A DNA stretch of 64,000 nucleotides, from positions 152,460,001-152,524,000 of the forward strand of contig CM059431.1 of assembly GCA_030390025.1 (NCBI GenBank), written 5' to 3'. The translations under genes were made by a program, and so were the position numbers. Position 1 is the stretch's first letter, and every line of letters begins with the position of its first letter. A model generated the notes under the pieces. It saw nothing but the letters and a program-made list of their open reading frames with translations, was not told the origin of the DNA and did no database searches. Positions 9,817 through 39,409 of this stretch are shown here, piece after piece. This stretch comes from Squalus acanthias (taxonomy: Eukaryota).

Positions 9817-10880
9817 TACTCCGTCGCCTCCAGTGCAGATCCAAGGTCGTCACATCCTGTGTCATCGAATTACAGTATGCAGACGACGCTTGCGTCTTCG
9901 CACACTCTGAGGCCAAATTCCAAACAGTCAACACCTTCACCGAAGCGTACGAGAGCATGGGCCTTACACTAAACATCCAGAAGACAAACGTCCTCTGCCA
10001 ACTTGCCCCCACCACACAGTACTGCTCCCTGATTATCAAAATCCATGACGAGGCCTTAGACAACGTGAACCACTTTCCATACCAGGGGAGCCTACTGTCA
10101 ACAAGAGTATCTGTCGATGTCAAAGACCAACACTGCCTTCAGTGTGCCAGTGCAGCCTTCGGTCGCCTGAGGAAGAGAGTGTTTGAAGACCAGGGCTTCA
10201 AACCCAGCACCAAGCTCATGGTCTACAGAGCAGTAGTGATACGAGCCCTCCAGAATGCTTCAGAGACATGGACCATGTATTGCAGGCACCTCAAAGCACT
10301 GGAGAGGTACCACCAACGCTGCCTCCGCAAGATCCTGCAAATCCATTGGCAGGATAGGCGCACCAACGTCAGTGTTCTCGCTCAGGCCAACATCCCCAGC
10401 ATCGAAGCTGAGACCACGCTCGCTCAGCTCCGATGGTTGGGTCATATCGTCCGCATGCCCGATACGAGACTCCCAAAACAATCCCTGTACTCGGAGCTTC
10501 GACAGGGCATAAGAGAGCCCCAGGTGGGCAGAGGAAACGCTTCAAGGAGAGTCATAAAGCCTCCTTGAAAATGTGCTACATCCCCACCGACACCTGGGAT
10601 TCGCTTGCCCAAGACCGCACAAAGTGGAGGTGAAGCCTCCGGGAAGGCGCCGAATACCTCGAGTCTCTTCGCCGGGAGCAAGCGGAAGCGAAGCTCAAAC
10701 AGCGGAAGGGGCGCACGTCAACCGAAGCACCCAACCCACCCGTCCATCAACAACCGTCTGCCCCGCCTGTGACATAGACTGTAGGTCCCGCATTGGACTC
10801 ATCAGTCACCTGAGAACTCATTTTTAGTGTGGAAGCAAGTCATCCTCGGTTCCAAGGACTGCCGAAGAAGAGAAGAAGGG
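9817..10880 (+). mobile_element. 5'-truncated RTE-clade (BovB-like) LINE
   Basis: ELQYADD RT motif, ASAAFGRLRKRVF, GGQRKRFK, C-terminal CPAC...SHLRTH zinc finger, (GAA)n-like tail. Confidence 0.85.
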
Positions 10881-11919
10881 ATCAATACTTGTGGTGACTC
10901 TATTCTAAATTGCTGTTTGTGACACTACGCTAACATTGCTGGTGTTGACACTACTCTTTCATTATTGGTGGTGACCATACTCTAACATTACTGGTGTTGA
11001 CTCTACTCTGTCATTACTGGTGGTGAATTTACTCGAACATTAATGGTTCTGACTCTACACTAACAATACTGGTGATGACCCTACTCCAACATTACTGTTG
11101 ATGATTGAACTCTAATGTTACTGGTGGTGACACCACTATAACATTACTGGTCGTGAATCTACTGTAACATGACTTATGATGGCCGTAATCAAACATTACT
11201 GCTGTTGACACTACTCTAACATTACTATTGGTAACCCCACTCTATCATTACATGTTGTAGCTCTACTCTTACACTACTGGTATTGACTCAACTCTAACAT
11301 TACTGGTGGTGACCAGATTCTAACATTACTGCTGCTGACCCTAGTCTAACATTACTGGTGTTGACCACAGCTTAAAATAACTGTTTGTGACTCTACTCTA
11401 GCCTTACCTGTGATCACCCTACTCTAGAATTACTGCTGGTGACTCTACTGGAACATTACTGCTGACGACCAAACTCTAAAATTAATGGTGTTGAGCCTAA
11501 TCTATAATTATTGCAGATTAAACTAATCTAACAATTGTGATGCTGAGTCTACTCTACCATTATTATGATGACCCTATTCCAACATTACTGGTGGTGACCC
11601 TACTCTAACCTTACTGGTTGTGCACCTAATCTAACATTACTGGTGTTGCCCCTACATTAACATTAATGATTGCGACTGTACTCTAACATTAATGATTGTG
11701 CCTCTGCACTAAAATTGTTGTTTCTGACTGTAATCTAATATTCCTGAAGTTGATTCCGCCCTAACATTACTGGTGGTGGCCAAACTCTAAGATTATTATT
11801 GATACCCACACTATAACATTACTGGTGGTGACTCCACTCTAACATTAATGTTGATAAACCCACTATATCATTAGAGTTGGTGACCAAACTATATCATTAC
11901 CGTTGGTCACCTTAATAGA

Positions 11920-12195
11920 AAAACATAGAAACATAGAAACATAGAATCTAGGAGCAGGAGTAGGCCATTCGGCCCGTCGAGCCTGCACCACCATTCAATA
12001 CGATCATGGCTGATCATTCAAATCCAGTACCCTGTCCCTGCTTTAATCCCCACAGTACACATATCCCACCCGACCGCCGTAACCCCACGTATTTAATTCC
12101 CCCTAACATATCCCATCCTATCCCCATAACCCCACATATTTAATCCCCCCCTAACACTAAGGGTCAATTTATCATAGCCAAATCAACCTAACTTA
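11920..12195 (-). mobile_element. 3' fragment of HE1/V-SINE-like SINE with CR1-derived tail
   Basis: Near-identical to 13525-13780; (CATAGAAA)n tail on + strand. Confidence 0.75.
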
Positions 12196-13419
12196 TGTTT
12201 GTGAATCTACACTAGCATTACTTGAGATGACGCTACTGTAACATTTCTGGTTGTGACTCTACTCTAAAATTACTGGTGTAGATCCTACTATAATTTTAAA
12301 GCGTGTCACCATACTCTAATTTTGTATCTCTACATGAACATTACTGGTGGTGACTCGACTCTAACAATGCTGTTTGTGACCCTACTCTAACATTACTGGT
12401 AGTGACCCTTCTCTAACATTGCTGGTGGAGACTCTACTCTAACATTACTGGTGGTGACACTACTCTAACATTACTGGTGGTGATTGTACTCTAACATTAC
12501 TGGTGGTGACTCTACTCTAACATTACTGGTAGTGACAATACTCTAACATTACTGCTGGTGATCGACTCTAACATTACTGGTAGTGACACTACTCTAACAT
12601 TACTGATGCTGACTTTACTCTGTCATTACTGGTGGTGACACTACTCTAACATTACTGGTTGTGACACTACTCTAACATTACTGGTGGTGACTCTACTCTA
12701 ACATTATTGGTGGTGACATTACTCTAACATTATTTTTGGTGACTCTACTCTAACATTACTGGTAGTGACTCAACTCTAACATTACTTGGAGTGAATTTAC
12801 TCTAACATTTATGTTGGTGAATCTAATTTAACATTACTGGTGGTGACTTGACTCTAACATTACTGGTAGTGACCTACACTAACATTACTGGTGTTGACCC
12901 TACTGTAACATTACTGGTGGTGGCTCTACTATAGCATTACTGGTGGTGACTCTACACTAACATTACTGGTGGTGAATCTACTCTAACGCAACTGGTGGTG
13001 AGACTTATCTAACATTACTGGTTGTGACGATACTCTAACATTACTGGCGGTGGCTCTACACTAACATTACTGGTGGTGACCCTACACTAACACTACTGGT
13101 AGTGACCCTACTCTAACATTACTGTGGGTGAATCTACTCTAACATTACTCTTGGTGAATCTAATTTAACATTACTGGTGGTGACTAGACTCTAACATTAC
13201 TGGTAGTGACCCTACTCTAACATTACTGGTGGTGACCCTACTGGTAGTGACCCTATTCTAACATTACTGGTGGTGACCCTACTCTAACATTACTGGTGGT
13301 GACCCTACTCTAAAATTACTGGTATTGATCCTATTCTAACATTACTGGTGGTGACGCTACTCCAGCATAGCTGGTGATGACGCTACTGTAACATTACTGT
13401 AGGATACGCTACTCTATCA

Positions 13420-14900
13420 TAAGTTCCGCCATTCAATAAGATCACGGCTGATCTTGTACCTCATCTCCACTTTCCTCCACATCCCTTGAATCCATTAATA
13501 TTCAGAATCTATCGATCTCTGTCTTACATAGAAACAAGGAGCACGAGTAGGCCATTCAGCCCGTCGAGCCTGCTCCACCATTCAATACGATCATGGCTGA
13601 TCATCCAAGTCCAGTACCCTGTCCCTGCTTTAATCCCCACAGTACACATATCCCACCCTACCCCCGTAACCCCACGTATTTAATTCCCCCTAACATATCC
13701 CATCCTATTCCCATAACCCCACATATTTAATCCCCCCCTAACACTAAGGGTCAATTTATCGTAGCCAAATCAACCTAACCCGCACATTTTTGGACTGTGG
13801 GAGGAAACCGGAGCACCCGGAGGAAACCCACGCAGACACGGGGAGAATGTGCAAACTCCACACAGACAGTCACCCGAGGTCAGATTCGAACCCGGGTCCC
13901 TGGCGCTGTGAGGCACCAGTGCTAACCACTATGCCACCGTGTCTTGAATATACTGAAAGACTGAGCCTCCACAGCCCAATCCAATTCCAAAGATTCACCA
14001 TCCTCTGAGTGAAAAAATATCTCCTCATCTCAGGCCTAAATGGTCGACCCTTTATTCTGAGACTTTGACCTCTGGTTGTAGACTCCCCAGCCAGGGGAAA
14101 CATCCTCGCTGCATCTACCCTGTCAAGTCCTGTAAGAATTTTGTATGTTTCAATGAGATCACCTCTCATTCTTCGAAACTCGAGAGAATATAGGCCTAGT
14201 CTACTCAATCTCACCGCATAGGACAATGCCCCCATCCTCGGAACCATTCTCGTGAATCTTCGTTGCGCTCCCTCTATGGTAAATATATCCTTCCTTAGGT
14301 AAGGAGACCAAAATTGTACACAATACTCCAGGTTTGGTCTCACCAGGGCCCTATATAATTGCAGTAAGTCGTCTTTACACTTATACTCAAAATCTTTTGT
14401 AATAAAGTCCAACATACCATTTGCTATCCTAATTGCTTACTGTACCTGCTTGTTAACTTTCATTGGATCTTGTACAAGGACAGTCGTTCCCTCTGAACAC
14501 CAACATTTCCCAATCCCTTACAATTTAAAAAAATTCTCTGATTTTCATCCCAATGTGGATAACTTCATATTTCTCCACATTATATTCCAATTGTCATGTT
14601 CTTGCTAATTCACTTAGCCTGTCTATATCCCCTTGAAGTCTTCTTGCATCCTCTTCACAACTTACAATCACCCAGCTTTGTATCATCAGCAAATCTGGAT
14701 ATATTACATTGGGTCCCATCATCAAAATCATTGAACTAGATTGTGAATAGCTGAGGCCCAAGCACTGATCCTTGCGGCACGCCACCAGTTACAGACTGCC
14801 AACCCGTTTATTCCTACTCTCTGTTTTCTGTCCGTTAACCAATTCTCAATCCATGAAAGTAAAATACACCCAAATCCCTGAGTCCTAATTTTGTTTATAG
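13420..14900 (-). mobile_element. CR1 LINE 3' fragment (RT C-terminal part) interrupted by the SINE
   Basis: LYRALVRPNLEYCVQFWSPY and LEFRRMRGDLIETYKI motifs. Confidence 0.85.
13525..13942 (-). mobile_element. tRNA-derived V-SINE (HE1-like)
   Basis: Minus strand has A box TGGCATAGTGG, B box GGTTCGAATC, V-domain-like core (GTTTGCACATTCTCCCCGTGTCTGCGTGGGTTTCC) and CR1-like tail. Confidence 0.8.
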
Positions 14901-15974: not shown

Positions 15975-17188
15975 GGGGGGGGGGGGAGAACTCTAGAATG
16001 CTCAAGAGAAAAGACAAGAAAACAGTGCAGGAAAGTAATTGGGGTAAGGATAACCAGATTGTGTCAGGAAGGGACAGAGCGTAGAAACAACGAAGTGCAC
16101 TAAAAAATAGGGACCGGGTAAGAAAAAATGGTAATAAACAAATTGGGACATAATAAAAAAAAATGTTTAATATGTCTAAAAATGTTAAAAATACAAATCT
16201 AAAGGCACTGTATCTGAATGCACGAAGCATTCGTAATAAGGTAGACGAACTAACAGCGCAAATAGATGTAAATGGATACGATATCATTGTGATTCCGGAG
16301 ACCTGGCTGCAGGGTGTCCAAGACTGGGAGCTGAATATCCAAGGATATTCGATATTAAGGAAGGACAGGCAAAAAAGAAAAGGAGGTGGGTGGCTTTGTT
16401 AGTAAAGGAAGTAATCAGAGCAATAGTGACAAAGGATATTGGCTCAGAAAATCAAGATGTAGAATCAGTCTGGATGGAGCTAAGAAGCCCAAGGGGCAGA
16501 ACACATTGGTGGGAGTTGTCGAAAGGCCTCCAAAGAGTAGTGCTATTTTAGGGGATGGAATCAAACTGGAAATTATAGATGCATGTAAAAAGGGTACTAT
16601 AGTAATCATGTGTGACTTTAATCTACATATAGACTGGCTAAACCAAATTAGCAATAATACTGTGGAGGATGAATTCCTGGAGTGTGTACGAGATGTCTTT
16701 TTGGATCAGTACGTTGAGGAGCCAACTGGGGAACAGGCTATCCTAGATTGGGTATTGTGCACTGAGAAGGGTTTAAATAATAATCGTGTTGTGCAGAGTC
16801 CTTTAGGGAAGAGAGACCAGAACATGAGGAATTCTTCATTTAGATGGAATGTCATGAAGTTCAATCCGAAACTAGGGTCCTAACTCTAAACAAAGGAAAC
16901 TACGAAGGTATGAGGAGTGAGTTGGCTATGATAGATTGGGGAGCTTCATTAAAAGCCATGCTGGTCGATAGGCAGTGGCTAACATTTTGGGAACAAATGC
17001 ATGAATTGCGACAGTTATACATTCCTTGCTGGCGCAAAACACAAAAGGAAAAGCAGCCCAAACATGGCGAACAAAATAAATTAAGTATAGTATTAGATCC
17101 AAAGGGGAGTCATATCAAGTTGCCAGAAAAAGCAGGCTGTAAAAGCTTCTACAAGTATGTAAAAAGAAAAAGATTAGTGAAGACAAAT
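15975..17188 (+). mobile_element. CR1 LINE ORF2 5' part (endonuclease), interrupted by the provirus
   Basis: YLNARSIRNKVDEL, ETWL, DFN and ILDWVL motifs; reading continues at 29881. Confidence 0.85.
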
Positions 17189-18813
17189 TGTAAGGGATTC
17201 TGACCCTGCGTGTCTCGCAGCCTGTGAGATTCACGTGGCTCTGTGCAGCCTGTATGTCAGTGCGGGTCTAGGCCTTGTTGCCTGTTCTGGTCTCCAGCCA
17301 GTCTGGGAACACTAGACACACCTGTGAGTGGTTCGAATCACTCGCCCTTACGGTTCTAGACACTGGACTTAGATGCGAGAGCAGTAATGGAGATAAAACT
17401 CATGTAGACTCGGTTTGAATGGTACGAAATGGAAAATCATTATTGCATGATACTTAAGATTATGAAATACATGTCATAAGCACAGATTAATGACAGTACA
17501 ATCTTACAAGCAGTTATATAGTCGATCTTAGGGAAACGAGGAACGAACGGCACACAGTAAATAGGGGCACACATTACAAATATCCTTAATCCTTAAACCC
17601 TCCCCTATCAATATCTATCCTAACTAGATTCGTAGGATTTCGAGACTCATGCTCACCACTCGTGATAACTCGGAGCAATTCCGAATAGCTGATCGGATGT
17701 TTTTCACCGCAGCACCCACGTGTTGGTCAGGAGATCTCCTGGTCCCACTTGTTTACTTGCTTCTGCTGCTCCGGCTAGCAGGCTGGACCGTCTGCTGTGA
17801 TGAAGACCTGTGTTGGTTGGTTTAACAGGTACTTTTCCGAGCACAGTTGTCAATATCATCGATGTGATATGTTCTTTGCAAGTTCGAAGAAGTCTTCCTG
17901 GCAAGGAAAACTTGGCTGTTCGACCTACAGGCGCGGTCGGGATTTACTGACCGTGGCGATGAATATGGTCTTCCTCTCTTCTCATCTCATCTCATCTCAT
18001 CTCATCTCGGGCCTTTGGTTCCGCTGCCAGTTACCAACATAGGTCTTCGTTACGCGACACGAGGTAGATCCGAACGGATCAGAAAGTTCAACAGTCCTTT
18101 TCAAAGAGTCAACAGGCAAGCAGGAGCCCGACTACGAGTACACAGGAGCAGCCACGAGGTTACGAGTCGATCGGATAAGAGAAAGATGGACGGTTTGGAG
18201 CCTGCAATTATAGTGCAAAATCTTCCGTTTCCCGCCCAACCTTAATGTCCATTCTTTTGTTCAGGGTCTGGCGCTCAAATGTCTTGTATGGGTGATTTCC
18301 GTTCTTAATGGGTTTCGGGGCTACTCGTAAATGTCTGAGTACCTGTTAATATTTCTCCCATTGTTAAATCGGTCGGTGTTCTCCCTGGAGGGGTTGTGGG
18401 GCTTCCAAGTGTTTTGTATAACTACCTGTTAACGGCTCTCTCATCGTAGAGTCGTTGGGATTTTACATATTAATGTCTTTTGGATGGGCCCTTGATTACT
18501 CGGTACAATGGCTTTCATTTGTACCTGGGAGACCGATTTCAGTATTTATGTGTATACTGCAAACCAATAATGTCTCGTGTATTATCTTCACTGTGCTGAA
18601 TCTTAATCGATCTTGCACAAATGTTTATTGGAACGCCATCTTGTCTGCCTGTTGAAAAGTCTAGAATGTTCTGTCACGAGGTGCGGCGGCCATTTTACAG
18701 GCTGCTTGTGTCCACTTTAAACCTGGCAGCATTCTGCTGAAATAAAAGCTGTTTGAACGAAACTCTGTGTTTTCTCCTTATTAATAAAATCGCGATATAT
18801 TGCGAATTCTACA
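17189..18813 (-). repeat. 3' LTR (1625 bp)
   Basis: Direct repeat of 28251-29880; TG...CA termini. Confidence 0.97.
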
Positions 18814-18825
18814 GTCCCTCCTGTT
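18814..18825 (-). other. Polypurine tract
   Basis: Minus strand AACAGGAGGGAC immediately precedes the TGTAG start of the 3' LTR. Confidence 0.7.
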
Positions 18826-19263
18826 GATGCGAATAACTCCGCTTATCGTATCAAAAATCATAGTGGTGAGCAATATTATCTCGATTTCTCTCCGAATCCA
18901 GCAAATTAATCCCATAATTTTAACCTAGCTAGGGTCTCTGTGTCGTCCTTATTTCCCAAGAAAATTACATTTTATATCACCGTAGGCATTATTTGCCCTT
19001 AAACTTACACCACTTGTTTTCCTTCCCGGCGTAACCAGGCCGATGCCTCTCGTATCACCTGTATATTCATCTTTTATTCAGGGAAAGGAAAAACAAAACC
19101 CAAAACCAAACAATCATTTTTAACTGTAACACCATTACCAAAATAATCAACACCAACTCTTAAAACATGTCGAGTTCCCAACGTATTTACAATCTCTGAA
19201 AATCATGATCGAGTACAAACTTCCGCGGCGCACGTGGCGAGCGGGAGTGACGCCATTTTCCGA

Positions 19264-21615
19264 TCACACGGTGCTTTCATCATGCACGCGCACGTAACGT
19301 TCTCGCCACTCTCCCGTGTTTTCATGCTTGGTGAGGCGCTTGTCTCTTTTACAATGTACGACCAATAGGTACACTACAATGAAAACTTGGCATACGACTA
19401 AAATGTGGAAGGCTATTCTGATCCATGAGGGCACTTCAATATTGGTGAACAGATTCCACCACGGTGGAACTACTATATCCAGAATGTCTGTCCCTATTTC
19501 GACAGTTTTCTGTTCTAATGTGTAAAAATGTTTCTGTGATACCGCGACGGCTTTTAAAAGTTTGGTGAGGTGTTCAGGGAGAGGGGGAATGAGGTATCCA
19601 AAATGCGCGACGAATCGCTGCAAGTCGGTGAAATTCTCTTTTACTGTGAGATGAACAGTGGATGGTTCAGGGATTGGGACAATTCGCTGTTGTGCTACTT
19701 GAACTTCCGCCCTGGGTTTAAAACAGAAACTGCTGTCACTCACCGGACACCGGCTGCGGTTTCCATGCTGGTAGTGTTGCGCTGCAGTGGTAACACAATA
19801 TGTTCCACCCCCGATGTATGCTACCTGCGGAGGCACATGATCTTGTGCCATTGCCTCCATGGTGCAATTCATGGACTTGGCGCCAGTCGTTCTGAACCCA
19901 CACTGTAGTGTTAAAAAGGCATTCAAGTGCTGGGGGCACAGTATTATGTGTGCTCCCCTGCCACGACAACCAGAGAGATCTGTACCTGTCATCGTTTGCT
20001 CCCAGCGGATGACGTAAGGTGGAACCGCTGCATAACGAATGTGGGCTCCCCCCTGAATGACACCAATGTTCTCTACCCGATACACCGGGGCGGGCTTTGG
20101 TGTGTCGCCCAAAACCGGCATGCGTAATACTATTCCCATAATAGTATGGTTTGATCGTCCGCAGTCCACGGGGACTGGGTATGCTTCTGAAGCTAGCCTG
20201 AGCTGGCACGGACTTAATGCGTTCTGAAAAGGGTGGAGCGCCCGCAGGTGTTTGTTACTTATCCAGGACGGAACCAAACCTTGTTTTAAATCCTCCAGAT
20301 TACTGCGGCCCTCGCCCAGTAACCACGCCCCGTAAAGCACGCACACCTCGTTCTGCGCAGCTTGATCGGATGCATTCCGATCTTCCCTAATCAGGGCATT
20401 TACCGTTTTTGCATGTTTCACCAGCTCTGCTATAATTTCCTTTAAATGGAGAGTCATGGCTTGGTCCTCGTGTAAACCTGACCCTACCACTTTATTCTCA
20501 TCTGTTAGAATGTCTTTTAATTGTGTCTTTAAACCATTAATCTGGGTCTGCAGCTCCACACTGTCTAGAGCGTTGACCACAGATGTACCCGTGTTAAAAG
20601 TAGTGAACGCATCGTTCACCAAACCCCTTCTTTGCCTCCCTACTTGATCCAAAACTTCCTGTGGTGCGGTGTACAAACTTGTTTTATCAATTTCCGCGAA
20701 ATCGAATTCGTAAAATTGTCTGCACATCTTGGTCAACAGGACCTGATACAACTGTTCCGTCTTTTTGGGGCACCACTCTGGTAACCGCACCTCGGTGAGA
20801 TTTAAAATCACCGAGGCCACCGCGTAATGTACTCCCTGAAATAGTATCTGGTCTGTGGGGACCAGTACCAAACCATTCCCGGGTCCCTTACTAGTTTTAG
20901 GGCACCCTTCTTCCTCAGCTAGAACCACCGGAATCGTGGGCGGGGCTTTGCGTGGGCGCGTAATGAGCTCAGTGGCATTTACTGGGATCGGGGAGAATGG
21001 GGCTCCGCACCCCCTGGTGCTCGCATCCCACCTCATCCCCTGTCCGTTATCCTGCCATTGATTAATGAAAAATATGGAGATGCCTTTGGGGCAAACGTAC
21101 TTTGACCCCCACATACATACATAAATTCCCTCGTCCGGTTCCCACCATTTGTCCCAACAGACTTTCACTTGTCCGTTTGTCCCCGTAATTGTCCGATGGG
21201 TATTATTACCCAGTCGTTCCCACTCGACCGAAGAGTTCCTCATAGTTTTGCTCAGCTTTCGCAGCCACCACCATCGGCTCAATGGGACATTCCCACTACA
21301 AGTCAAACAAATCCGTTTGCCGACGGTGACGCTGATCCTGGGTGCGATGATCCTTACTTTGGGGCACAGTAAAGAAGTCTCTTTGTAGGCAAACCCCGAT
21401 GTGCTAGAATACTCCGTTGAGTTCGTTCCCAGCCATCCTGGCCACCTTCCCTTGTGGAAATAGGTGCTGGTCTCCTCTGCCTCCCGTCTTCTGGTCCCAT
21501 CCACCGCGATGGGGGCCGTGTCCCCGGAACATCCAAACACCACAACATCCTTGGTGCGGCCTCGATAGGCCAATCCACATCCGATTGCCGCGAGCAATAC
21601 TAGAATTCGTTCCAT
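19264..21615 (-). CDS. env: Envelope/fusion glycoprotein (783 aa from ATG 21615; open frame extends to 21798): signal peptide, Ig-like domain, F-type fusion module, TM anchor
   Basis: Signal peptide MERILVLLAAIGCGLA; RQRR furin site (20637-20626) followed by fusion-peptide/heptad region; Cys-rich region; multiple N-glycosylation sequons; C-terminal TM IAFHILVVCQVFIVVYLLVV. Confidence 0.9.
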   Translation of the reverse strand: MERILVLLAAIGCGLAYRGRTKDVVVFGCSGDTAPIAVDGTRRREAEETSTYFHKGRWPGWLGTNSTEYSSTSGFAYKETSLLCPKVRIIAPRISVTVGKRICLTCSGNVPLSRWWWLRKLSKTMRNSSVEWERLGNNTHRTITGTNGQVKVCWDKWWEPDEGIYVCMWGSKYVCPKGISIFFINQWQDNGQGMRWDASTRGCGAPFSPIPVNATELITRPRKAPPTIPVVLAEEEGCPKTSKGPGNGLVLVPTDQILFQGVHYAVASVILNLTEVRLPEWCPKKTEQLYQVLLTKMCRQFYEFDFAEIDKTSLYTAPQEVLDQVGRQRRGLVNDAFTTFNTGTSVVNALDSVELQTQINGLKTQLKDILTDENKVVGSGLHEDQAMTLHLKEIIAELVKHAKTVNALIREDRNASDQAAQNEVCVLYGAWLLGEGRSNLEDLKQGLVPSWISNKHLRALHPFQNALSPCQLRLASEAYPVPVDCGRSNHTIMGIVLRMPVLGDTPKPAPVYRVENIGVIQGGAHIRYAAVPPYVIRWEQTMTGTDLSGCRGRGAHIILCPQHLNAFLTLQCGFRTTGAKSMNCTMEAMAQDHVPPQVAYIGGGTYCVTTAAQHYQHGNRSRCPVSDSSFCFKPRAEVQVAQQRIVPIPEPSTVHLTVKENFTDLQRFVAHFGYLIPPLPEHLTKLLKAVAVSQKHFYTLEQKTVEIGTDILDIVVPPWWNLFTNIEVPSWIRIAFHILVVCQVFIVVYLLVVHCKRDKRLTKHENTGEWRERYVRVHDESTV

Positions 21616-21904
21616 CCTTCCTTGGTTCCTGTGATCAGATAGAATGAGGTAGCCAGCCTCGCAAGAGTCTCTGGCTTCTGTGAAGGGTGAGCGGGTCCCC
21701 TGACCTCGCCTCACGTAAACTTCAACGTTCGCTGAATAAACTTTAACTAAACCTATCCTTAAAGCTCCCATCATTTTATCGTTTTCTGTTAAAAACACTA
21801 CAATCTTAACCTTATCAAAAAAACTATAAACTTAACCTTGAACTATAAACTTAAGACTTAAAACTTATAACTTTACAGTGCCGCCCGTTCTCAGGGCGGC
21901 CCCT

Positions 21905-24900
21905 TTAAATTCTGAGAAGGCTGCTGCGAGCTCTTCCCGACGGTGGGAGGGCACTGACCCTTCCCTTTGATCTGCCGCAGCCTGTTGCTGCACTGACCCC
22001 TTCCTCTGATCTGCCGCAGCCTGTTGCTGCTGCGATGGGGCCGGGCTGTATCTGGGTTGCCTTAACCTTAAGTCTACGCCTTGGGGCAGTCTGGGGACAT
22101 GACCACATCCTCCTGGGCTGGGGTTCTCTACTTGACCTACGGGGAGTTGCTATGGGCGGGGGTTCCGTGACGGACGGACCGGGTTCCGAGACTTCCATCG
22201 GGATGACCTGGGGTTCCATCACAGTCGCTGGCTCCGCCTCCGCTGACTCCGCCTCCCTAACCTCGGGGCTTGCAGTTTGTGGCCCCGCCCTGCTCGGCCC
22301 AGCAGGCGGCCCTTCACTCGTGATCTCTGCCTCCCCCGAGGGCGGGACGTTCAAAACGGGCGGCCACATCTCTGGGAGCCACACCGGTACTCTCTGTGCT
22401 CCCATAGCGGCTGGCCCTGCCTCCCCTAGCTCCTCCCTCCTGTCTTCGGGACCTGCAGCTTGTGTGTCCACCCTGTGTGGATCTCTACCTGCAGCCCCCG
22501 TTCCCTCCATATCGTAAATGGGACCGTTCCTGAGAAACCACCCGTCGTCATCACTATTCTCATCTGCACTGTCCTCATCTGACCCGGGTACCCTGAATTC
22601 TTCCTCATCTAACCCCCAATTCCAGAAAAACGCTGCATGATCGTCCGGGATGTCCCTTCCCCTGATGCAAGCTGCTATGCCTGCCTGTGTGCCTTGTGGT
22701 CCTACCTGGGGCTGTGCTTTCCCACTGGCGGGATTTACCCCTGTAGTTTTCCCCTGCGCACCTGGCTGGTACAGTTTGCATTGGTTTATGTGGAACCACT
22801 TAGTGCGCCGAGGTACTTTTACGGCGTAAACCATGGGACTCACCTTGTCTACAATGTTGTAGGGTCCCATATACAGTGGTTCCAGACTCCCTACTCTGGC
22901 GTAGTTTCTGACCATGACCTGGTCTCCTACTTCCCACTCCCGCGTTTTGCGGGGTTCCAGCAACAAGCGATTGCCCTGATGCTGCCTTCCCATGTTCCCA
23001 GCCGCCTGCTCATAAACCTGTTTCAGGCGCTCCAAGAGAGTCTGGGCGAACTTGTCCCTGCTTATCTCTTGGAGCTGACCCTCAGTGAGCACCGGCGCTA
23101 GCACATGGGTGGGGGTTCGCATGAGCCTCCCAGTCATTACCTCGTGCGGGGAGTACCCCGTACTTTTTGACTGACTGGCCCGGACCCCCATGAGGACTAA
23201 AGGCAGAACCTCCGCCCATTTTTGGGGCGAGTTCCTAGTCTCTTTCCTCAATTTCTCCTTCAGGGTCCGGTTCATACGTTCAACAATCCCGGATGACTGG
23301 GGATTGTGTGCTACGTGCCACTTCCCTTCAATGCCCAAAAGCATGAGGGTGTTCTGCATCACCTGGCCGGTGAAATGACTCCCTTGGTCTGACTCCACAA
23401 AACGGGGAAGTCCCCACCGCGAGAACACTTCCCGGACCAAGATTTTTGCTGTACCCAGTGCCGTAGCTGTTCGACAAGGGAAGGCTTCCACCCACTTGGA
23501 AAACACATCCACCAGGACGAGGCAGTACTTATAACCTCCCTGGGTGGTGGGCAGGGGTCCTATGTAGTCGATCTGTATCGACTGCCATGGTCCCTCTACC
23601 CTTCTTACGTGTCCCATGGGCACCTTCCTTTTCTGGGGGTCTGGGTTGTTTGCAGCGCACACAAGACAGCTTGCACAGAACTCGCGGACTTGTTCCCTGA
23701 GCCCTGGCCACCATCCCGCTTGCTCTACCCGTTGCCAGGTAACCTCGGGCCCGGGGTGCCCTGCCCCTGGTCCCTCGTGAGCCAACTGGAGGAATTCCCT
23801 CCTGTGCTGCTGCGGCACAACCCACTGCTCCTCGCGGAACAGCATGCCTTCCTTAACTGAGAGGGTTGCCGTACTGTACGGACCTTCTACCTGTCTCCCC
23901 TCAGCAATGGTTTTTAGGACTGCTTTTAGGGCGGGATCCTGGGCTTGGACGGTCTTAAGGTCTAGGGGCAATGCTACCCTGGTGTTCCCGGGATTCCCGT
24001 CCCTGCCTCGGACCGCTGCTATGGGTCTGGTCCCATAGGGGTTCCAGAAAATGCCGTTGCGGGCACCTTCCCTGGCTAGCGCATCCGCCTGCTGGTTGCC
24101 CTCCCCACGGGGCTCTGTGGAGGAGTGAGCTTTCACCTTATGGATGAAAATCTCTCCTTCCTCTCCTACTGCTGCTGCTAAGATCTTTTCCAGCAAGGGC
24201 TTCACCGTTAAAGGTCGCCCGTCCGCGGAGGTGTATCCACGGCGGGACCAAATGGCCAGGTATTCCGTACACGAATTGCAGGTGAACATACTGTCCGAGC
24301 AAATCGTGTATGGGGTTGGGAAAATGTCTGGGTGGGTAACAACGTACACCACGGCAGACAGCTCAGCCTGCTGCGCGCTCATGGTGCTGGGGAGCTTGAT
24401 CGCCAGGGCAAGGTTTGCCGCAGGGTCATAAACTCCACACCCTGTGAGTCGTTCGCCAGCAGATACTGTGCTAGACCCATCAACATAAATCTCGCGCCCA
24501 GTGGGATGTATCCCGGCCCGTAAACCTATGTTGACGTCCCACACCCCTTCCACCGAACTGGCTGTACCGGGGTATACCAAATTGGCCGCAAGCCTGGGCT
24601 CGCAAAGACCTTTTACTCTAAGATCCAAATGGGAGAGAAGAAGGGTCCAGCGCGCAATGCGCACGCTGCTTACGGTCCCATCTTTAATCCTCCCATCCAG
24701 AAGCATCTTAGTTGGTGTGTGATGTGTGAGGAGAGTGATGGGAGAGAGCCCTATGAAGATCGCTGATCTTTTCACAGCCCAATGCGTGGCTAAAAGGTGC
24801 CTTTCGCAATTGGAGAAACTTCTCTCCACATCCGTTAACACCCTGGATGAATAGACAACCGGCCTCAGCTTGCCGTGACGCTCTTGGAGCAGCACAGCGC

Positions 24901-26434
24901 TCAAGCTGTCTCCGCTGGCAGCTACCTCCAGGAAAAACTCCTTCCCCCCATCTATGGCCCCTACGGCTGGCGCGGTCTGCAGATCCCCTTTTAACTTCTC
25001 GAAGGCTGCTTGGCAGCCCTCGTCCCAAGACCACTCCACCCCCTTATGGAGGAGTCGGAGGAGCGGCGCTGCTGTGGCCGCATAGTCTTCGATAAAATCC
25101 CTGCAGTAACCGGTCAGTCCCAAGAAGGACCTCACACCCCTTACGTTGTTGGGAATCGGTAATTCTTGCACCGACTCCCTCCTTGCTTTGTCTATGGCTC
25201 TTTCCCCAGCGCGTATGGTCAGTCCCAGGAATTTTACTTCCCGCTGACCGATACGTGCTTTCTTAGGATTTATTTTAAAACCCTTTCTCGCTAGCAGCTC
25301 CAATAACTCGTCCAGTAGTGGTCCATGCTCCTCCCTTGAGTCCGTAAATAGGAGCAAATCATCCACATACTGCACTATCTGATTGGGCTGACTAAACTCC
25401 TTTAAACTTCCTGCCATACACTGATGAAAAATACTGGGGCTATTGTGGAAACCCTGTGGCAGACAGTTCCATGTGTACTGTTGTCCTTTGAAAGTAAAGG
25501 CAAACTTGTACTGGTCCTCTCGCCGCAGCGGGATGGACCAAAAACCGTTCGAGATATCCAGCACCGTGAACGTGGTCGCGGACGCTGGGATGCTTCCTAT
25601 TAGGTCAGCAACTGCTGCTACCGTGGGCGCGCAGGCGGGAATGTTACTGTTAAGGACTCTGTAGTCCACCGTGGCTCTCCACGAATTATCCGGCTTCCTA
25701 ACCGGCCATAATGGGGAGTTCACGTGTGTGGCTATCGGCCTCAACACGCCCTGCTGCACCAAGGAAGACATTGCTGTCTCCATATCGGGTTCTGCTTCTT
25801 TGGGGAAGTTATACTGCTTTTGGGGTCGGGTCATGGGGTCCCCATCTACGCTGACCTCAAACCCGACAACCCTCCCACAATCGTGCTTGTGGGTTGCAAA
25901 CGCGTGCATATTATCTGACACGTACGTTTGCATGTCCGTTGGGACATCTGCGACCATAAGCCTGAGGTCGTAGCCTCCGGATGGCTGTACGGTACACAGG
26001 ACCCCTGTTTCTTCCTCCCCCGGAATCACTATTACCTCGCCTTTTTCACCTTTAGCCCCCCAGAGACAGTGATTTCTGAGGTCCACGAGGATCCCGTGTC
26101 CCGATAGGAGATCAGACCCGAGAATACCTCTTCCACCCCCCTCCTGCCATGCCATCAGTATACACTTCCACTTAAGGCGAAGTGTTCCTAAACGAATGGA
26201 TAGCGGAAGGGAAAACGTGCCAGCCTGTTCTTTTCCTGTGAACCCCGCTAACGTGAATGGGACCTTGGTAGATAGCGGCGAGTCAAAAGGGTTATCTGTA
26301 TGGATTATGGTGCAAGAAGCTCCCGTGTCCAACAAATAACTACCCCTCTGTTTCTCTACCTCCATTTCCACCAAAGGTCGCTTCCACGCATCATAGCTAA
26401 GCGGACACAGGTAGACGGGCTGCGCCGGTTCTAG
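21905..26434 (-). CDS. pol: Pol polyprotein: protease, RT, tether, RNase H, integrase, low-complexity C-terminal extension (in frame with gag)
   Basis: LLDTGA protease; LPQGF and YVDD (25369-25358) RT; YVDGSS/AQQAEL/SDS/GNQQAD RNase H; HHCC, IDYIG-SDQG-IVERMN DDE and GPY integrase motifs; no internal stops. Confidence 0.97.
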   Translation of the reverse strand, partial: LEPAQPVYLCPLSYDAWKRPLVEMEVEKQRGSYLLDTGASCTIIHTDNPFDSPLSTKVPFTLAGFTGKEQAGTFSLPLSIRLGTLRLKWKCILMAWQEGGGRGILGSDLLSGHGILVDLRNHCLWGAKGEKGEVIVIPGEEETGVLCTVQPSGGYDLRLMVADVPTDMQTYVSDNMHAFATHKHDCGRVVGFEVSVDGDPMTRPQKQYNFPKEAEPDMETAMSSLVQQGVLRPIATHVNSPLWPVRKPDNSWRATVDYRVLNSNIPACAPTVAAVADLIGSIPASATTFTVLDISNGFWSIPLRREDQYKFAFTFKGQQYTWNCLPQGFHNSPSIFHQCMAGSLKEFSQPNQIVQYVDDLLLFTDSREEHGPLLDELLELLARKGFKINPKKARIGQREVKFLGLTIRAGERAIDKARRESVQELPIPNNVRGVRSFLGLTGYCRDFIEDYAATAAPLLRLLHKGVEWSWDEGCQAAFEKLKGDLQTAPAVGAIDGGKEFFLEVAASGDSLSAVLLQERHGKLRPVVYSSRVLTDVERSFSNCERHLLATHWAVKRSAIFIGLSPITLLTHHTPTKMLLDGRIKDGTVSSVRIARWTLLLSHLDLRVKGLCEPRLAANLVYPGTASSVEGVWDVNIGLRAGIHPTGREIYVDGSSTVSAGERLTGCGVYDPAANLALAIKLPSTMSAQQAELSAVVYVVTHPDIFPTPYTICSDSMFTCNSCTEYLAIWSRRGYTSADGRPLTVKPLLEKILAAAVGEEGEIFIHKVKAHSSTEPRGEGNQQADALAREGARNGIFWNPYGTRPIAAVRGRDGNPGNTRVALPLDLKTVQAQDPALKAVLKTIAEGRQVEGPYSTATLSVKEGMLFREEQWVVPQQHRREFLQLAHEGPGAGHPGPEVTWQRVEQAGWWPGLREQVREFCASCLVCAANNPDPQKRKVPMGHVRRVEGPWQSIQIDYIGPLPTTQGGYKYCLVLVDVFSKWVEAFPCRTATALGTAKILVREVFSRWGLPRFVESDQGSHFTGQVMQNTLMLLGIEGKWHVAHNPQSSGIVERMNRTLKEKLRKETRNSPQKWAEVLPLVLMGVRASQSKSTGYSPHEVMTGRLMRTPTHVLAPVLTEGQLQEISRDKFAQTLLERLKQVYEQAAGNMGRQHQGNRLLLEPRKTREWEVGDQVMVRNYARVGSLEPLYMGPYNIVDKVSPMVYAVKVPRRTKWFHINQCKLYQPGAQGKTTGVNPASGKAQPQVGPQGTQAGIAACIRGRDIPDDHAAFFWNWGLDEEEFRVPGSDEDSADENSDDDGWFLRNGPIYDMEGTGAAGRDPHRVDTQAAGPEDRREELGEAGPAAMGAQRVPVWLPEMWPPVLNVPPSGEAEITSEGPPAGPSRAGPQTASPEVREAESAEAEPATVMEPQVIPMEVSEPGPSVTEPPPIATPRRSSREPQPRRMWSCPQTAPRRRLKVKATQIQPGPIAAATGCGRSEEGVSAATGCGRSKGRVSALPPSGRARSSLLRI

Positions 26435-28246
26435 TCATGGGGTACTATTAGACGGTCCTGCGGCACCTACAGGGCCGGTTGCGACCGCCACCTGTCCACG
26501 CGCACTCAAGATTAGATTGCGCATGGCTCCTAACACTACTTCGAGGTCGTCAGGAGGGGTGCGTGCCTTAGCTTCCTTAGCCGGGACAGGCGCCTGGGCT
26601 CGGACCGTGGGATTTTTATCCTTGGAATCCTTCCAAGGGTTCCTGCAATGCTTGCGCCAGTGCCCTGTCTTCCCACACCCGTAACAAGCATTACCTGCCT
26701 GTGGGGCGCGATTACCCTCCTGATGCCACTCTCTTTGATACGGGGCTGCGGGTCGTACCTCATGTCCTCTTCCCTTAAGGGGACGTGTTGCCATACCCCT
26801 TATATTGCGATAACCTAACGTGAGTCGATTCAAGACCGACTCTTCCGTAATGTTGGGGTCATTGGGATCAAACCATGCTTTTGCCTGCTCTCTGACGGCT
26901 GGTAAACTGTTGGCTATTATGCACCTAAGCCAATGAGTTAAAGCGGTGCCTTCCACATCTTCGCGCTCGGGCGCACCTAGGCAGCTGCGCTCATATACTG
27001 GCCACAGCCTGTCGGCAAAAACCTTCGGGGGTTCTCCCTCCATCTGCACTGTCTGTCCCACTCTAGCAAACGGACCTTCATCGTTCGCCCCCAACACTTC
27101 CAGGACCTCATCCCTCAATTCCTCATAAGTCTTGGTTCCCCTCTTGCTCTCGCCCGAGAGACACTGGAGAACCGAGCTGTCTAGTGAGAACAGCAGCATT
27201 TTTGCTGTCTCCCCATCATCGCAGCCGTTGATGGCTGCGGCTTGCTCAACTTCTCTGAAATGTACGGAAGGGTCGTCTGACTCGGTCAGCTTCCGTACGT
27301 GATTTATCATAGCTCTCAGCTGATGTGAGCTGTGAGGCAACACCAGCTGTCCGAGGAGATCCCCCGGTTCTTCCCCACCGTTTCTGTTTGGGCCCCTTTT
27401 AATGCCCGTTACTGGATACAACGGTCCCTTTCCTACTTCTTTTTCAATGGGCTCTTTTGTTTCTTCCATTGCTTCCTCCCTTACCCAGGTTTCCGAATAG
27501 CTGGGTGGCGCGGAGGGCGCAGTGGCTACTACTTCCTCTGCTTTACTTGGTGGGGATTTCTTAAACTTCTCACTTACTAACGGCTGGTGTGCTGACGGAC
27601 TGATCAGGCACACCATGCCGTTCGCTTTGTTTACGGCCTTCTTGAGGTGCTCTATCTCCCTTTGGCAGGCGCTATGGTCGGCTCCCTCAAACTTATCCTT
27701 AAGGGCCAACTTATATGCCGCCCTAACCCCCGTTAAGCTCTCTTCTTGAGTTCTTATCTGGGCAGCTTGGCGGTTACATCTTTCCTTTAACCTGCTCTCA
27801 TTCAACTTTGCCTCAGTGACCTGGCACTCGAGATAATCTATCCTTGTTTTAAGGTGACTGGAGATTTCCTGGCTTTCTTGGTGCAACTCATTTAAATTCT
27901 TAATGAGCACCTCCACTCCAGAAACCTTCTCATCCATTTCTCCCTCTAAATGACTGATTCGAGCTACTAGCGCTGTAATGGTCTGGTTTGAAATCTGAAC
28001 CTGCCTTTTGTAACACATAAGCCAGACTGCTTTCTCAAGTGTCTTTCTAAGTTCTTTACTATCTGTCCACCTTTCGGCTGCCTCTAGCGGGCTTTTATCC
28101 GCTAACAATTCACTTATCCATTTCTTAGTTAGATTAACCTTTCCAAACACATAATCTGCTATCTTTTCCTGCATAACATTTCGTACAGTCATTCCAAAGT
28201 CTAACACACTACCCTCTCGCTGCCAGTGTCCTGCCGCGGTCGCCAT
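26435..28246 (-). CDS. gag: Gag polyprotein (up to 603 aa)
   Basis: Lies directly after the PBS; heptad-rich N-terminal half, PSAPPSY, single CCHC knuckle CYGCGKTGHWRKHC (26686-26645). Confidence 0.93.
   Translation of the reverse strand: MATAAGHWQREGSVLDFGMTVRNVMQEKIADYVFGKVNLTKKWISELLADKSPLEAAERWTDSKELRKTLEKAVWLMCYKRQVQISNQTITALVARISHLEGEMDEKVSGVEVLIKNLNELHQESQEISSHLKTRIDYLECQVTEAKLNESRLKERCNRQAAQIRTQEESLTGVRAAYKLALKDKFEGADHSACQREIEHLKKAVNKANGMVCLISPSAHQPLVSEKFKKSPPSKAEEVVATAPSAPPSYSETWVREEAMEETKEPIEKEVGKGPLYPVTGIKRGPNRNGGEEPGDLLGQLVLPHSSHQLRAMINHVRKLTESDDPSVHFREVEQAAAINGCDDGETAKMLLFSLDSSVLQCLSGESKRGTKTYEELRDEVLEVLGANDEGPFARVGQTVQMEGEPPKVFADRLWPVYERSCLGAPEREDVEGTALTHWLRCIIANSLPAVREQAKAWFDPNDPNITEESVLNRLTLGYRNIRGMATRPLKGRGHEVRPAAPYQREWHQEGNRAPQAGNACYGCGKTGHWRKHCRNPWKDSKDKNPTVRAQAPVPAKEAKARTPPDDLEVVLGAMRNLILSARGQVAVATGPVGAAGPSNSTP
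28228..28245 (-). other. Primer-binding site complementary to tRNA-Arg(UCG)
   Basis: TGGCGACCGCGGCAGGAC, 5 nt after the LTR end; complement of the vertebrate tRNA-Arg-TCG 3' end GUCCUGCCGCGGUCG-CCA (recalled sequence). Confidence 0.85.
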
Positions 28247-28250
28247 TTTC

Positions 28251-29880
28251 TGTAAGGGATTCTGACCCTGCGTGTCTCGCAGCCTGTGAGATTCACGCGG
28301 CTCTGTGCAGCCTGTATGTCAGTGCGGGTCTAGGCCTTGTTGCCTGTTCTGGTCTCCAGCCAGTCTGGGAACACTAGACACACCTGTGAGTGGTTCGAAT
28401 CACTCGCCCTTACGGTTCTAGACACTGGACTTAGATGCGAGAGCAGTAATGGAGATAAAACTCATGTAGACTCGGTTTGAATGGTACGAAATGGAAAATC
28501 TTTATTGCATGATACTTAAGATTATGAAATACATGTCATAAGCACAGATTAATGACAGTACAATCTTACAAGCAGTTATATAGTCGATCTTAGGGAAACG
28601 AGGAACGAACGGCACACAGTAAATAGGGGCACACATTACAAATATCCTTAATCCTTAAACCCTCCCCTATCAATATCTATCCTAACTAGATTCGTAGGAT
28701 TTCGAGACTCATGCTCACCACTCGTGATAACTCGGAGCAATTCCGAATAGCTGATCGGATGTTTTTCACCGCAGCACCCACGTGTCGGTCAGGAGATCTC
28801 CTGGTCCCACTTGTTTACTTGCTTCTGCTGCTCCGGCTAGCAGGCTGGACCGTCTGCTGTGATGAAGACCTGTGTTGGTTGGTTTAACAAGTACTTTTCC
28901 GAGCACAGTTGTCAATATCATCGATGTGATATGTTCTTTGCAAGTTCGAAGAAGTCTTCCTGGCAAGGAAAACTTGGCTGTTCGACCTACAGGCGCGGTC
29001 GGGATTTACTGACCGTGGCGATGAATATGGTCTTCCTCTCTTCTCATCTCATCTCATCTCATCTCATCTCATCTCGGGCCTTTGGTTCCGCTGCCAGTTA
29101 CCAACATAGGTCTTCGTTACGCGACACGAGGTAGATCCGAACGGATCAGAAAGTTCAACAGTCCTTTTCAAAGAGTCAACAGGCAAGCAGGAGCCCGACT
29201 ACGAGTACACAGGAGCAGCCACGAGGTTACGAGTCGATCGGATAAGAGAAAGATGGACGGTTTGGAGCCTGCAATTATAGTGCAAAATCTTCCGTTTCCC
29301 GCCCAACCTTAATGTCCATTCTTTTGTTTAGGGTCTGGCGCTCAAATGTCTTGTATGGGTGATCTCCGTTCTTAATGGGTTTCGGGGCTACTCGTAAATG
29401 TCTGAGTACCTGTTAATATTTCTCCCATTGTTAAATTGGTCGGTGTTCTCCCTGGAGGGGTTGTGGGGCTTCCACGTGTTTTGTATAACTACCTGTTAAC
29501 GGCTCTCTCATCGTAGAGTCGTTGGGATTTTACATATTAATGTCTTTTGGATGGGCCCTTGATTACTCGGTACAATGGCTTTCATTTGTACCTGGGAGAC
29601 CGATTTCAGTATTTATGTGTATACTGCAAACCCATAATGTCTCGTGTATTATCTTCACTGTGCTGAATCTTAATCGATCTTGCACAAATGTTTATTGGAA
29701 CGCCATCTTGTCTGCCTGTTGAAAAGTCTAGAATGTTCTGTCACGAGGTGCGGCGGCCATTTTACAGGCTGCTTGTGTCCACTTTAAACCTGGCAGTATT
29801 CTGCTGAAATAAAAGCTGTTTGAACGAAACTCTGTGTTTTCTCCTTATTAATAAAATCGCGATATATTGCGAATTCTACA
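28251..29880 (-). repeat. 5' LTR (1630 bp)
   Basis: Direct repeat of 17189-18813 with one extra CTCAT unit; AATAAA at 28506-28501. Confidence 0.97.
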
Positions 29881-31660
29881 AAATGTAGCTCCGTTACATT
29901 CAGACACTGGAGAATTTATAATGGGCAAAAAGGAAATGGCTGAGCAAATAACAAATACTTTGGTTCTGTCTTCACGGATGGGACAAAAATAACTTCCCAG
30001 AAATGCGAGGGAACCAAGGGTCTAGTGAGAAGGAGGAATGAAAGGAAATTAGTATTAGGAAAAAAACAGTGCTGGAGAAATTAATGTGACTGAAAGCCGA
30101 TAATCTGCATCACAGAGTACTCAAAGAGGTAGCCATGGAAATAATGGATGCATTGGTTGTTATCTTCCAGAATTCTATAGATTATGGAACAGTTTTTCAG
30201 ATAATTGGAGGGTGGCAAATATAACCACATTATTTAAAAAGGGGAGGAGAGAGAAAACAGGGAACTACAGACTAACATCAGTAGCAGGAAAAATATTGGA
30301 GCCTATTATAAAGGATGTGATAACAGGAGAATTAGAAAATATCAACTGGATTAGACAAAGTCAACTTGGATTTTTGAAAGGGAAATCGTGTTTGACAAAC
30401 CAACTGGAGTTTTTGGAGGATGTAACTGGTAGAATAGATAAGGGAGAAACAGTGGATTTGGTGTATTTGGATTTTCAGAAGGCCTTTGATAAAGTCCCAC
30501 ATAAGAGGTTAGTGAGTAATATTAAAGCACATGGGTAGGGGTAATATACTGGCATGGATTGAAAATTGTTTAACAGCCAGGAAACAGAGAGTAGGAATAA
30601 ATTTGTTTTTTCGGGGTGGCAGGCGGTTACTAGTGGGGTACCGCAGGGATCAGTGTTTGGGTCCCAACTATTCACAATATATATCAATGAATTGGATGAG
30701 GGAACCAAATGTAATATTTCCAAGTTTGCTGACGACACGAAGCTAGGTGGGATTGTGAGTTGTGAGGAGGATGCAAAGAGGCTTCAAGGCGATTTAGACA
30801 AGTTGAGTGAGTGGGGACATACATGGCTGATGCAGTATAACTTGGATAAATGTGACGTTACCCACTTCGGTAGGAAAAACAGAAAGGCAGAGTATTATAT
30901 AAATGGTGATAGATCGGGAAAAGCTGATGTACAAAGCGATCTGAGTGTCCTTGTACACCAATCACTGAAAGCAAACATGCAGTTGCAGCAAGCAGTTAGG
31001 AATGCAAGTGGTGCGTTGGACTTCATTGCAAGAGGAATTGAGTACAGGAGCAAGTATGTGTTACTACAGTTATACAGGGCCTTGGTGAGACCACACCTGG
31101 AGTACTGTGTGCAGTTTTGGTCTCCTTACCTAAGAAAGAATATACTTGCCATAGAGGGAGTGTAGCGATGGTCCACCAGACAGATTCCTGGGATGGCAGG
31201 AATGTCGTATGAGGAGTGATTGGGTCGACTATGCCAGTATTCACTAGAGTTTAGAAGAATGAGAGCGGATCTCATTAAAACGTATACAATTCTGATAGGG
31301 CTTGTCAGGCTTGATGCAGGGAGGATGTTTCCCCTGTTTGGGAGGACTAGAATGAGGGGTCACAGTCTCAGGATACGGGGTAGGACATTTAGGACTGAGA
31401 TGAGGAGAAATTTCTTCGCTCAGAGGGTGGTGAACCTGTGGAATTCTCTACCACAGAAGGCTGTGGAGGCTAAGCCACTGAATATATTTAAGAAGGAGAT
31501 AGATAAATTTCTAGACACAAATGTCATCAAGGGGTATGGGGAGAGAGCGGGGATATGGTATTGAGATAGAGGATCAGCCATGATCACATTGTAGGCAGAG
31601 CAGGCTCGAAGGGCCGAATGGCCTACTCCTGCTCTTATTTTTCTATGTTTCTATATTTCT
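29881..31660 (+). mobile_element. CR1 LINE ORF2 3' part and tail (continuation of 15975-17188)
   Basis: YLDFQKAFDKVPH, SGVPQGSV, FADDTKLGG and LVRPHLEYC motifs; TTTCTATG-type tail. Confidence 0.9.
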
Positions 31661-39400: not shown

Positions 39401-39409
39401 CCCCAGTAA

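Follow-up and report, generated by a model that had tools for sequence, protein, structure and literature searches.

A 64,000-nucleotide stretch of the Squalus acanthias genome (GenBank assembly GCA_030390025.1, contig CM059431.1, positions 152,460,001 to 152,524,000; hereafter the window) carries on its minus strand a complete endogenous retrovirus (ERV), whose env gene is the subject of this report. The provirus has its full set of parts, the env frame is open with its motifs in place, the family is present in many copies and env is under purifying selection. We consider it probable that this is the env of an intact, young, multi-copy ERV from a deep branch near snakehead retrovirus (SnRV), with a product predicted to be a fusogen of the paramyxo- and pneumovirus fusion protein (F) type, class Ib, and likely to have its own N-terminal receptor-binding module.

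The env frame runs from stop to stop over 855 codons (19264-21831, minus strand). Its features, all on the minus strand, are as follows.

19264-21615, minus: env, open frame of 783 amino acids, with the likely initiator Met at 21615.
21568-21615, minus: likely signal peptide of 16 amino acids, judged from the sequence as read, without a predictor.
20911-21567, minus: N-terminal variable module of about 220 amino acids, with a weakly indicated Ig-like beta domain at about 21115-21354 and a Pro-rich linker.
20638-20900, minus: F2-like segment (GLVL...VILNL long beta strand plus helix), from strands and helix in the model; aligns to F from residue 245.
20626-20637, minus: RQRR furin-type cleavage site, from the sequence.
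20284-20625, minus: putative fusion peptide and heptad repeat A (HRA) helices; the helices are from the model, the fusion peptide is placed by position only.
19723-19983, minus: Cys-rich block of the F domain I/II beta core, with seven Cys spanning 19968-19723, from sequence and model.
19474-19575, minus: membrane-proximal helix resembling heptad repeat B (HRB), model helix 681-714.
19357-19425, minus: transmembrane (TM) anchor, hydropathy peak 2.74, followed by a tail of about 30 amino acids.

All of the motifs quoted in a preliminary description of this DNA lie in this one minus-strand open reading frame (ORF): GLVLVPT (20874-20854), VILNL (20811-20797), RQRR, the heptad beginning VELQTQ (20559-20506), the Cys-rich block and the anchor. 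The span given there, 19264-20900, takes in these core motifs but leaves out the signal peptide and about 220 amino acids of N-terminal ectodomain (20900-21615). Its account of a long ectodomain is borne out, although cleavage site and anchor start lie 403 amino acids apart and the quoted figure of about 420 is reached only at the anchor's end. Motif searches of the env protein confirmed its remark that CX6CC and CKS17-type motifs are absent. Several env homologues have an R-x-K/R-R site at the equivalent place, and 44 homologues were found at E≤0.001. Chance is excluded as the origin of this frame, because it stands after gag and pol in a provirus flanked by a 4-bp target duplication and has these 44 homologues.

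Structure prediction pointed to F. We built an AlphaFold2 model on a 34-sequence alignment, with pLDDT (predicted local distance difference test) mostly at 76-94 across core residues 240-300 and 420-650. The F2-like part comprises strands at 249-272 and a helix at 284-308 (pLDDT 81-92), and the HRA region contains helices at 347-372, 391-410 and 418-444. Foldseek against the PDB returned 227 matches at E≤0.001; the 40 matches listed were all paramyxo- or pneumovirus F, the best being human parainfluenza virus 3 (hPIV3) F at E 2.1e-10. VIA-align against 48,161 chains placed F proteins or foamy Env in the best 16 rows (Z 11.0-6.3), ahead of a first unrelated row at Z 5.1. Among them were Newcastle disease virus F (Z 11.0, 289 residues aligned, root-mean-square deviation (rmsd) 18.7), prefusion hPIV3 F (Z 10.6, 347 aligned, rmsd 8.3) and foamy Env (Z 9.3, 291 aligned, rmsd 5.0), with a second foamy structure at Z 7.2 (PDB 8rm0 and 8rm1). 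Structure matches in BFVD were to lispivirus G (best rows, E 4.9e-15), paramyxovirus F and baculovirus F; the predicted Envs of walleye epidermal hyperplasia virus 1 (WEHV-1; Q9WHI8, E 1.0e-13) and walleye dermal sarcoma virus (WDSV; A4GTG3, E 2.0e-9) also match the model. ESM Atlas gave Fusion_gly and Baculo_F clusters at 0.93 (206 of 256 features). The model displays the class Ib traits of a domain I/II beta core and domain III helices, in the order furin site, HRA, HRB and TM anchor. Together, these comparisons agree with the earlier proposal of an F-protein-like rather than gamma/beta-type Env: the fold predicted is that of F, and Pfam contained no TLV_coat or gp41 family among its matches. 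We therefore describe the env product as a predicted paramyxo/pneumovirus-F-type (class Ib) fusion protein.

Several observations weigh against this assignment. Mean pLDDT of the model is 58.8, with values under 50 over most of the N-terminal part. The rmsd values from VIA-align, 5-30 Å, are high over the whole chain, a range expected when a monomer model is compared between conformations. Neither Pfam F family (Fusion_gly PF00523, Baculo_F PF12259) matched env at E≤1, PDB sequence searches with env and with the 34-sequence profile retrieved no F protein, and only one of 28 env homologues matched Baculo_F (positions 463-585), weakly, at E 0.0011. The fusion peptide proposed after RQRR is placed by position only, and the segment is only mildly hydrophobic: it has no 19-residue window above Kyte-Doolittle 1.5, a level passed by the anchor alone, and pLDDT is under 50 at residues 308-356.

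Upstream of the F core, the N-terminal module is likely the Env's own receptor-binding module. PMC11468914 presents F as a minimal scaffold able to accept receptor-binding modules either N-terminally (coronavirus spike) or between its subunits (foamy Env). Hints of an Ig fold are all weak by sequence (Ig_3 at E 0.45 in Pfam, JAM-A at E 0.81 in a PDB sequence search); ESM Atlas returned Ig clusters at 0.85-0.87, one env homologue is named Ig-like by UniRef and another matches V-set at E 0.045. Structure does not firm up the Ig call. A single-sequence model of the module alone has pLDDT 37.6, too poor for use, and in VIA-align the module's best row was a phage protein (Z 7.3), with human Ig-superfamily domains at Z 4.9. 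None of the 12 loci compared from other F-core env families matched the module, and the N-termini of those Envs fall into several unrelated sets. These loci (L041-L052) represent several other, mostly older F-core ERV families in this genome, with unrelated N-terminal modules of 62-261 open codons upstream of the core.

The env frame is the last gene of a complete LTR-gag-pol-env-LTR provirus (LTR, long terminal repeat) at 17189-29880 on the minus strand, with the following parts.

28251-29880, minus: 5' LTR, 1630 nt, TG...CA, found by blastn against the 3' LTR.
17189-18813, minus: 3' LTR, 1625 nt.
17185-17188 and 29881-29884: target-site duplication (TSD) AAAT, 4 bp, flanking the provirus.
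28228-28245, minus: primer-binding site (PBS) for tRNA-Arg(TCG), separated from the LTR by 5 nt and overlapping the start codon of gag.
26435-28246, minus: gag, 603 amino acids, with a coiled-coil-like N-terminal region, one CCHC knuckle and a TGA end in frame with pol.
21905-26434, minus: pro-pol, 1509 amino acids, with Pfam RVP, RVT_1, RT_RNaseH_2, RNase_H, Integrase_H2C2 and rve.
18814-18826, minus: purine-rich tract, the likely polypurine tract (PPT) from sequence context, just before the 3' LTR.

The two LTRs share 99.08% identity, with 10 mismatches and one 5-nt gap by blastn (Kimura two-parameter distance 0.0062), which corresponds to 1.4 or 14 million years depending on the rate (rates of PMC7947760 and PMC4422223). 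The PBS contains the CCA complement and agrees with the 3' terminus of host tRNA-Arg(TCG) genes at 15 of 15 nt. The Gag knuckle, CX2CX4HX4C, was read directly; its Pfam zf-CCHC match (E 0.3) is below cut-off. Pol runs from protease through reverse transcriptase (RT), tether, RNase H and integrase (IN) to an acidic, Pro-rich tail of about 270 amino acids. That tail (21905-22700, minus) carries a 39-nt duplication at 21951-22028. Because the gag start codon overlaps the PBS (28228-28246, minus), there is hardly any leader between 5' LTR and gag. The gag stop stands in the context UGA-CUAG (26431-26437, minus), a readthrough signal in alphaviruses and mammalian genes; gamma- and epsilonretroviruses use an amber stop. 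We detected no stable RNA structure downstream of this stop (z 0.72), and UGA-CUAG was not seen at the gag-pro junctions of the 12 other loci, where the six protease matches are mostly broken.

To place the element we used an RT tree of 53 rows, rooted on gypsy elements: 47 chosen among the 141 homologues (of 171) whose sequence covers the RT core, five loci from the same genome and the window's element. Three rows with lokiretrovirus (Loki) motifs, labelled by motifs in the supplement of PMC7947760, group together (100/98), separate from 44 rows among which is the window's element (99/98). The RT of the window's element thus falls outside the lokiretroviruses. It belongs to a deep group with pols of frogs (including Xenopus), coelacanth and turtle, within which branching is not settled in the RT tree. 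The RT of entry P0121, which reads as the SnRV row of dataset S2 in PMC7947760, branches next in the tree. In approximately unbiased (AU) tests, joining the window's group with Loki was rejected (p-AU 0.020) and joining it with SnRV was not rejected (p-AU 0.25). SnRV is the closest named RT, at 45% identity versus 30-38% for the Loki-motif rows, and counting by hand over 193 RT columns we scored SnRV at 93, feline foamy virus at 74, WDSV at 71 and Loki-Lca at 70. On either side of the SnRV branch there are pols followed by an F-core env (L041, L046 and L052 versus L044 and L045), and each of the 12 loci fetched from other F-core env families carries a related integrase upstream on the same strand. 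'SnRV-like deep retrovirus' is the best label for the element, short of a proven clade.

Biological traits give a mixed picture of this kinship. SnRV and the window's element both have in-frame gag-pol with a stop, a coiled-coil Gag and one zinc finger (SnRV traits from PMC2717909). SnRV-like ERVs are known in elephant shark (CmiERV lineage I, PMC4422223) and across vertebrates (clade Huo, PMC6001957). Against a close relationship, the SnRV gag stop is amber (PMC2717909) and that of the window's element UGA. Nor did we find an accessory ORF of at least 50 amino acids between env and the 3' LTR, the only candidate being a 51-amino-acid Met ORF inside the LTR, whereas SnRV has accessory ORFs after env. 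A shared trait is the tRNA-Arg primer of SnRV, for which the window's element has a matching PBS. The free RT tree, which contains no foamy RT, does not join the window's group with SnRV, and the groups for the AU tests were named after a tree had been seen. Other parts of pol also point away from SnRV: tether identity is 27% to SnRV versus 31-43% to Loki, integrase identity is 35% versus 39-43%, and in an IN tree, which carries long-branch warnings, the window's element falls with Loki and gypsy (92/90). Our env searches did not retrieve the Env of SnRV itself.

The tether and integrase results bear on a different reading, in which the element is a divergent lokiretrovirus, the first from a cartilaginous fish, with an ordinary Loki env and an added N-terminal module. 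Lokiretrovirus was our first guess, dropped on the RT trees and the AU test. In its favour, PMC7947760 describes Loki Env as PF00523-like, the two Envs look alike by eye where the F core begins (PG..G.VL), they have in common a furin site, a coiled coil, a TM anchor, an F-like ectodomain, a likely signal peptide and, for the window's element, a putative fusion peptide, and both elements have a similar tether and IN as well as the dual RNase H (tether plus RNase H) common to all retroviruses. We nevertheless judge this reading unlikely. Besides the RT evidence, the motifs LTVTC (IN) and PFGY.NSP (RT) seen in published Loki rows are absent from the window's element, and the Env differs in its extra module of about 220 amino acids and its seven-Cys block; in the published Loki Env rows viewed, the F core comes right after the signal peptide and the Cys pattern is another. 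PMC7947760 reports lokiretroviruses in none of six chondrichthyan genomes, although two of these species have annotated fragments of related env.

Foamy Env is itself a structural match to the model, and it shares the class Ib F core (PMC11468914), the long TM ectodomain and the lack of CX6CC. A further reading is that the element is a member of the shark-plus-frog foamy-like lineage (CmiFLERV/XtrFLERV), known from pol only, with a foamy-type env. PMC5512871 describes a cluster of shark and frog foamy-like ERVs without detected gag or env, the window's group contains Xenopus pols, and the RT tree held no foamy RT. This, too, is improbable: the RT hand count favours SnRV over feline foamy virus, and the variable domain is N-terminal here but inserted between subunits in foamy Env, from which the window Env also differs in being without a leader-peptide subunit. 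Gag is of orthoretrovirus type with a zinc knuckle and is in frame with pol, unlike foamy Gag. As described in PMC5210030, foamy and teleost foamy-like elements have no Cys-His box in Gag, GGGTG at the PPT/LTR border and a Lys, Asn or Thr primer; the window's element has none of these traits, its PBS being for Arg.

We regard as very unlikely a third reading, that this one family recently captured an F-like env from an RNA virus or baculovirus-like donor. Lispivirus glycoproteins do supply the best BFVD rows. Against recent capture, identity to viral F proteins is only 8-15%, and on both sides of the SnRV branch several distant env families of this genome come after related pol. Sharks, rays, frogs and coelacanth, moreover, all have env homologues, at 18-38% identity; paramyxo/pneumovirus F (PF00523), baculovirus F (PF12259), F-type errantivirus Env and lispivirus G resemble the window Env in predicted fold, order of elements, furin site and Cys-rich beta core, and it differs from them in having a fused N-terminal module in place of a separate attachment protein. 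The nearest named env homologues are from Rhinoraja, Pristiophorus, Mustelus, Chiloscyllium, Heterodontus, Heptranchias and Scyliorhinus, and more distant ones from Pelodytes, Xenopus and Latimeria.

Within its own genome the family is abundant and young. At least 111 near-identical env copies are present (111 of 111 scored candidates matched, from 9173 first-look candidates); 110 have 99% protein identity over the query and the window's own has 100%. An open frame of at least 786 amino acids is present in 99 of the 111 by hand count, the 111 having been selected as the best scorers. Across 19 copies env DNA divergence is 1.4-2.4%. Using env outside the stretch by which the copies were found, the ratio of nonsynonymous to synonymous polymorphism (pN/pS) is 0.21 for the N-terminal part (24 nonsynonymous, 34 synonymous) and 0.09 for the C-terminal part (7 and 22), which is purifying selection, the N-terminal module included. 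Such selection on env across copies is usually taken as a mark of reinfection. Since env stayed under purifying selection while the copies diverged, the family is likely to have spread by reinfection, an argument also made in PMC5210030. That env is instead a host-domesticated gene, or a mere passenger of intracellular retrotransposition, is highly improbable: purifying selection taken alone would be compatible with co-option, and no read shows a virion or spliced env RNA, but the copies are dispersed at 99-100% protein identity, provirus LTR divergence is 0.6%, selection is visible across copies and a pol-deleted subfamily still keeps env.

In this subfamily, the equivalent of window positions 22788-26403 is replaced by about 245 nt, with gag and env kept. 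Its units stand in tandem with one LTR shared and a spacing of about 7.7 kb at three of four loci fetched (L059, G000:C3311:2259000-2268900; L060; L061), and its joint is also present in one contig of run X1. Depth over env exceeded that over gag-pol in two contig sets guessed to be RNA and was flat in a third, contig depth being a poor measure; no env splice joint was seen in these three sets. A scan of viral contigs with env gave three pattern matches, none of which was confirmed.

The window holds further features apart from the provirus. A single-exon rhodopsin-family G-protein-coupled receptor ORF lies at 42711-43661 (plus strand; 7tm_1, E 1.8e-17), and an inverted 93% copy at 5698-6683 (minus) is broken by an in-frame stop. 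Arrays of a 26-bp satellite occur in both orientations (7951-13420, 39403-41186 and 58558-59274), along with an RT fragment at 30563-31162 (plus) and a DDE_Tnp_4 (Harbinger-type) transposase fragment at 63395-64000 (plus). Elsewhere in the genome, tRNA-Arg(TCG) and tRNA-Ser(GCT) form long tandem arrays with a unit of about 1.6 kb (G000:C26:38.9-42.2 Mb); the search pattern used has 429 exact matches genome-wide.

How such an Env would work may be sketched from the biology of F and foamy Env. It would be made from spliced RNA and enter the endoplasmic reticulum via its signal peptide, trimerise, and be cut by furin at RQRR. The N-terminal subunit, comprising the variable module with the F2 strand and helix, would remain attached to the F1-like subunit. 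On receptor binding, HRA would extend and the new N-terminus enter the target membrane; HRB would then zip back and the membranes fuse.

F-type Envs are already known from other retroelements, namely lokiretroviruses (PMC7947760, PMC9040795), foamy viruses (PMC11468914) and invertebrate errantiviruses (bioRxiv 10.1101/2023.10.26.564294, which announces a separate account of vertebrate elements). The statement in the preliminary description that retroviral TM ectodomains are much shorter holds for gamma-, beta- and lenti-type Env and fails for foamy and lokiretrovirus Env; because these are F-like, the layout is less surprising than was first held. New here are an F-type Env in the deep SnRV-like branch, its variable N-terminal module and a young family under selection. 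All marks of gamma-type Env (TLV_coat in Pfam, CX6CC, CKS17, short TM ectodomain) are absent. The walleye Envs are much longer (1159-1317 amino acids) and belong to viruses with RT of class I epsilon type. ERV4 (Repbase; PMC4299795) has no Gag zinc finger and a 5-bp TSD, differing from the zinc knuckle and 4-bp TSD here. Judged by title or abstract start, no paper found reports F-type Env in SnRV-like or epsilon retroviruses, most subscription journals being outside the search.

A wider reading, which we offer tentatively as a possibility rather than an expectation, is that retroviral Env was ancestrally an F-type (class Ib) fusogen, that in the deep group of the window's element a swappable, often Ig-like N-terminal module serves for receptor binding, and that the present family was infectious in its host very recently. 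Gamma- and beta-type Env would then be later replacements, because F-type Env is present in lokiretroviruses, in foamy viruses, in the shark, frog, coelacanth and turtle group on both sides of SnRV and, by predicted structure, in walleye epsilonretroviruses. On how retroviral Env arose, Wang and Han (PMC7947760) did not decide between four scenarios, and PMC9040795 later preferred separate Env gains in Loki and canonical retroviruses. The present element adds a deep canonical branch to the foamy and walleye viruses as holders of F-type Env, and Env-versus-Pol trees can now test whether that type had a single ancient origin. Because these Envs lack a Pfam match, ERV screens built on a known TM motif (PMC10435555 is an example) could overlook such families. 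If the wider reading is true, an F core with an N-terminal receptor-binding module would be a coronavirus-spike-like arrangement in a retrovirus. This young, intact, high-copy family also offers natural sequences for the structure of the simplest F-plus-N-terminal-module design.

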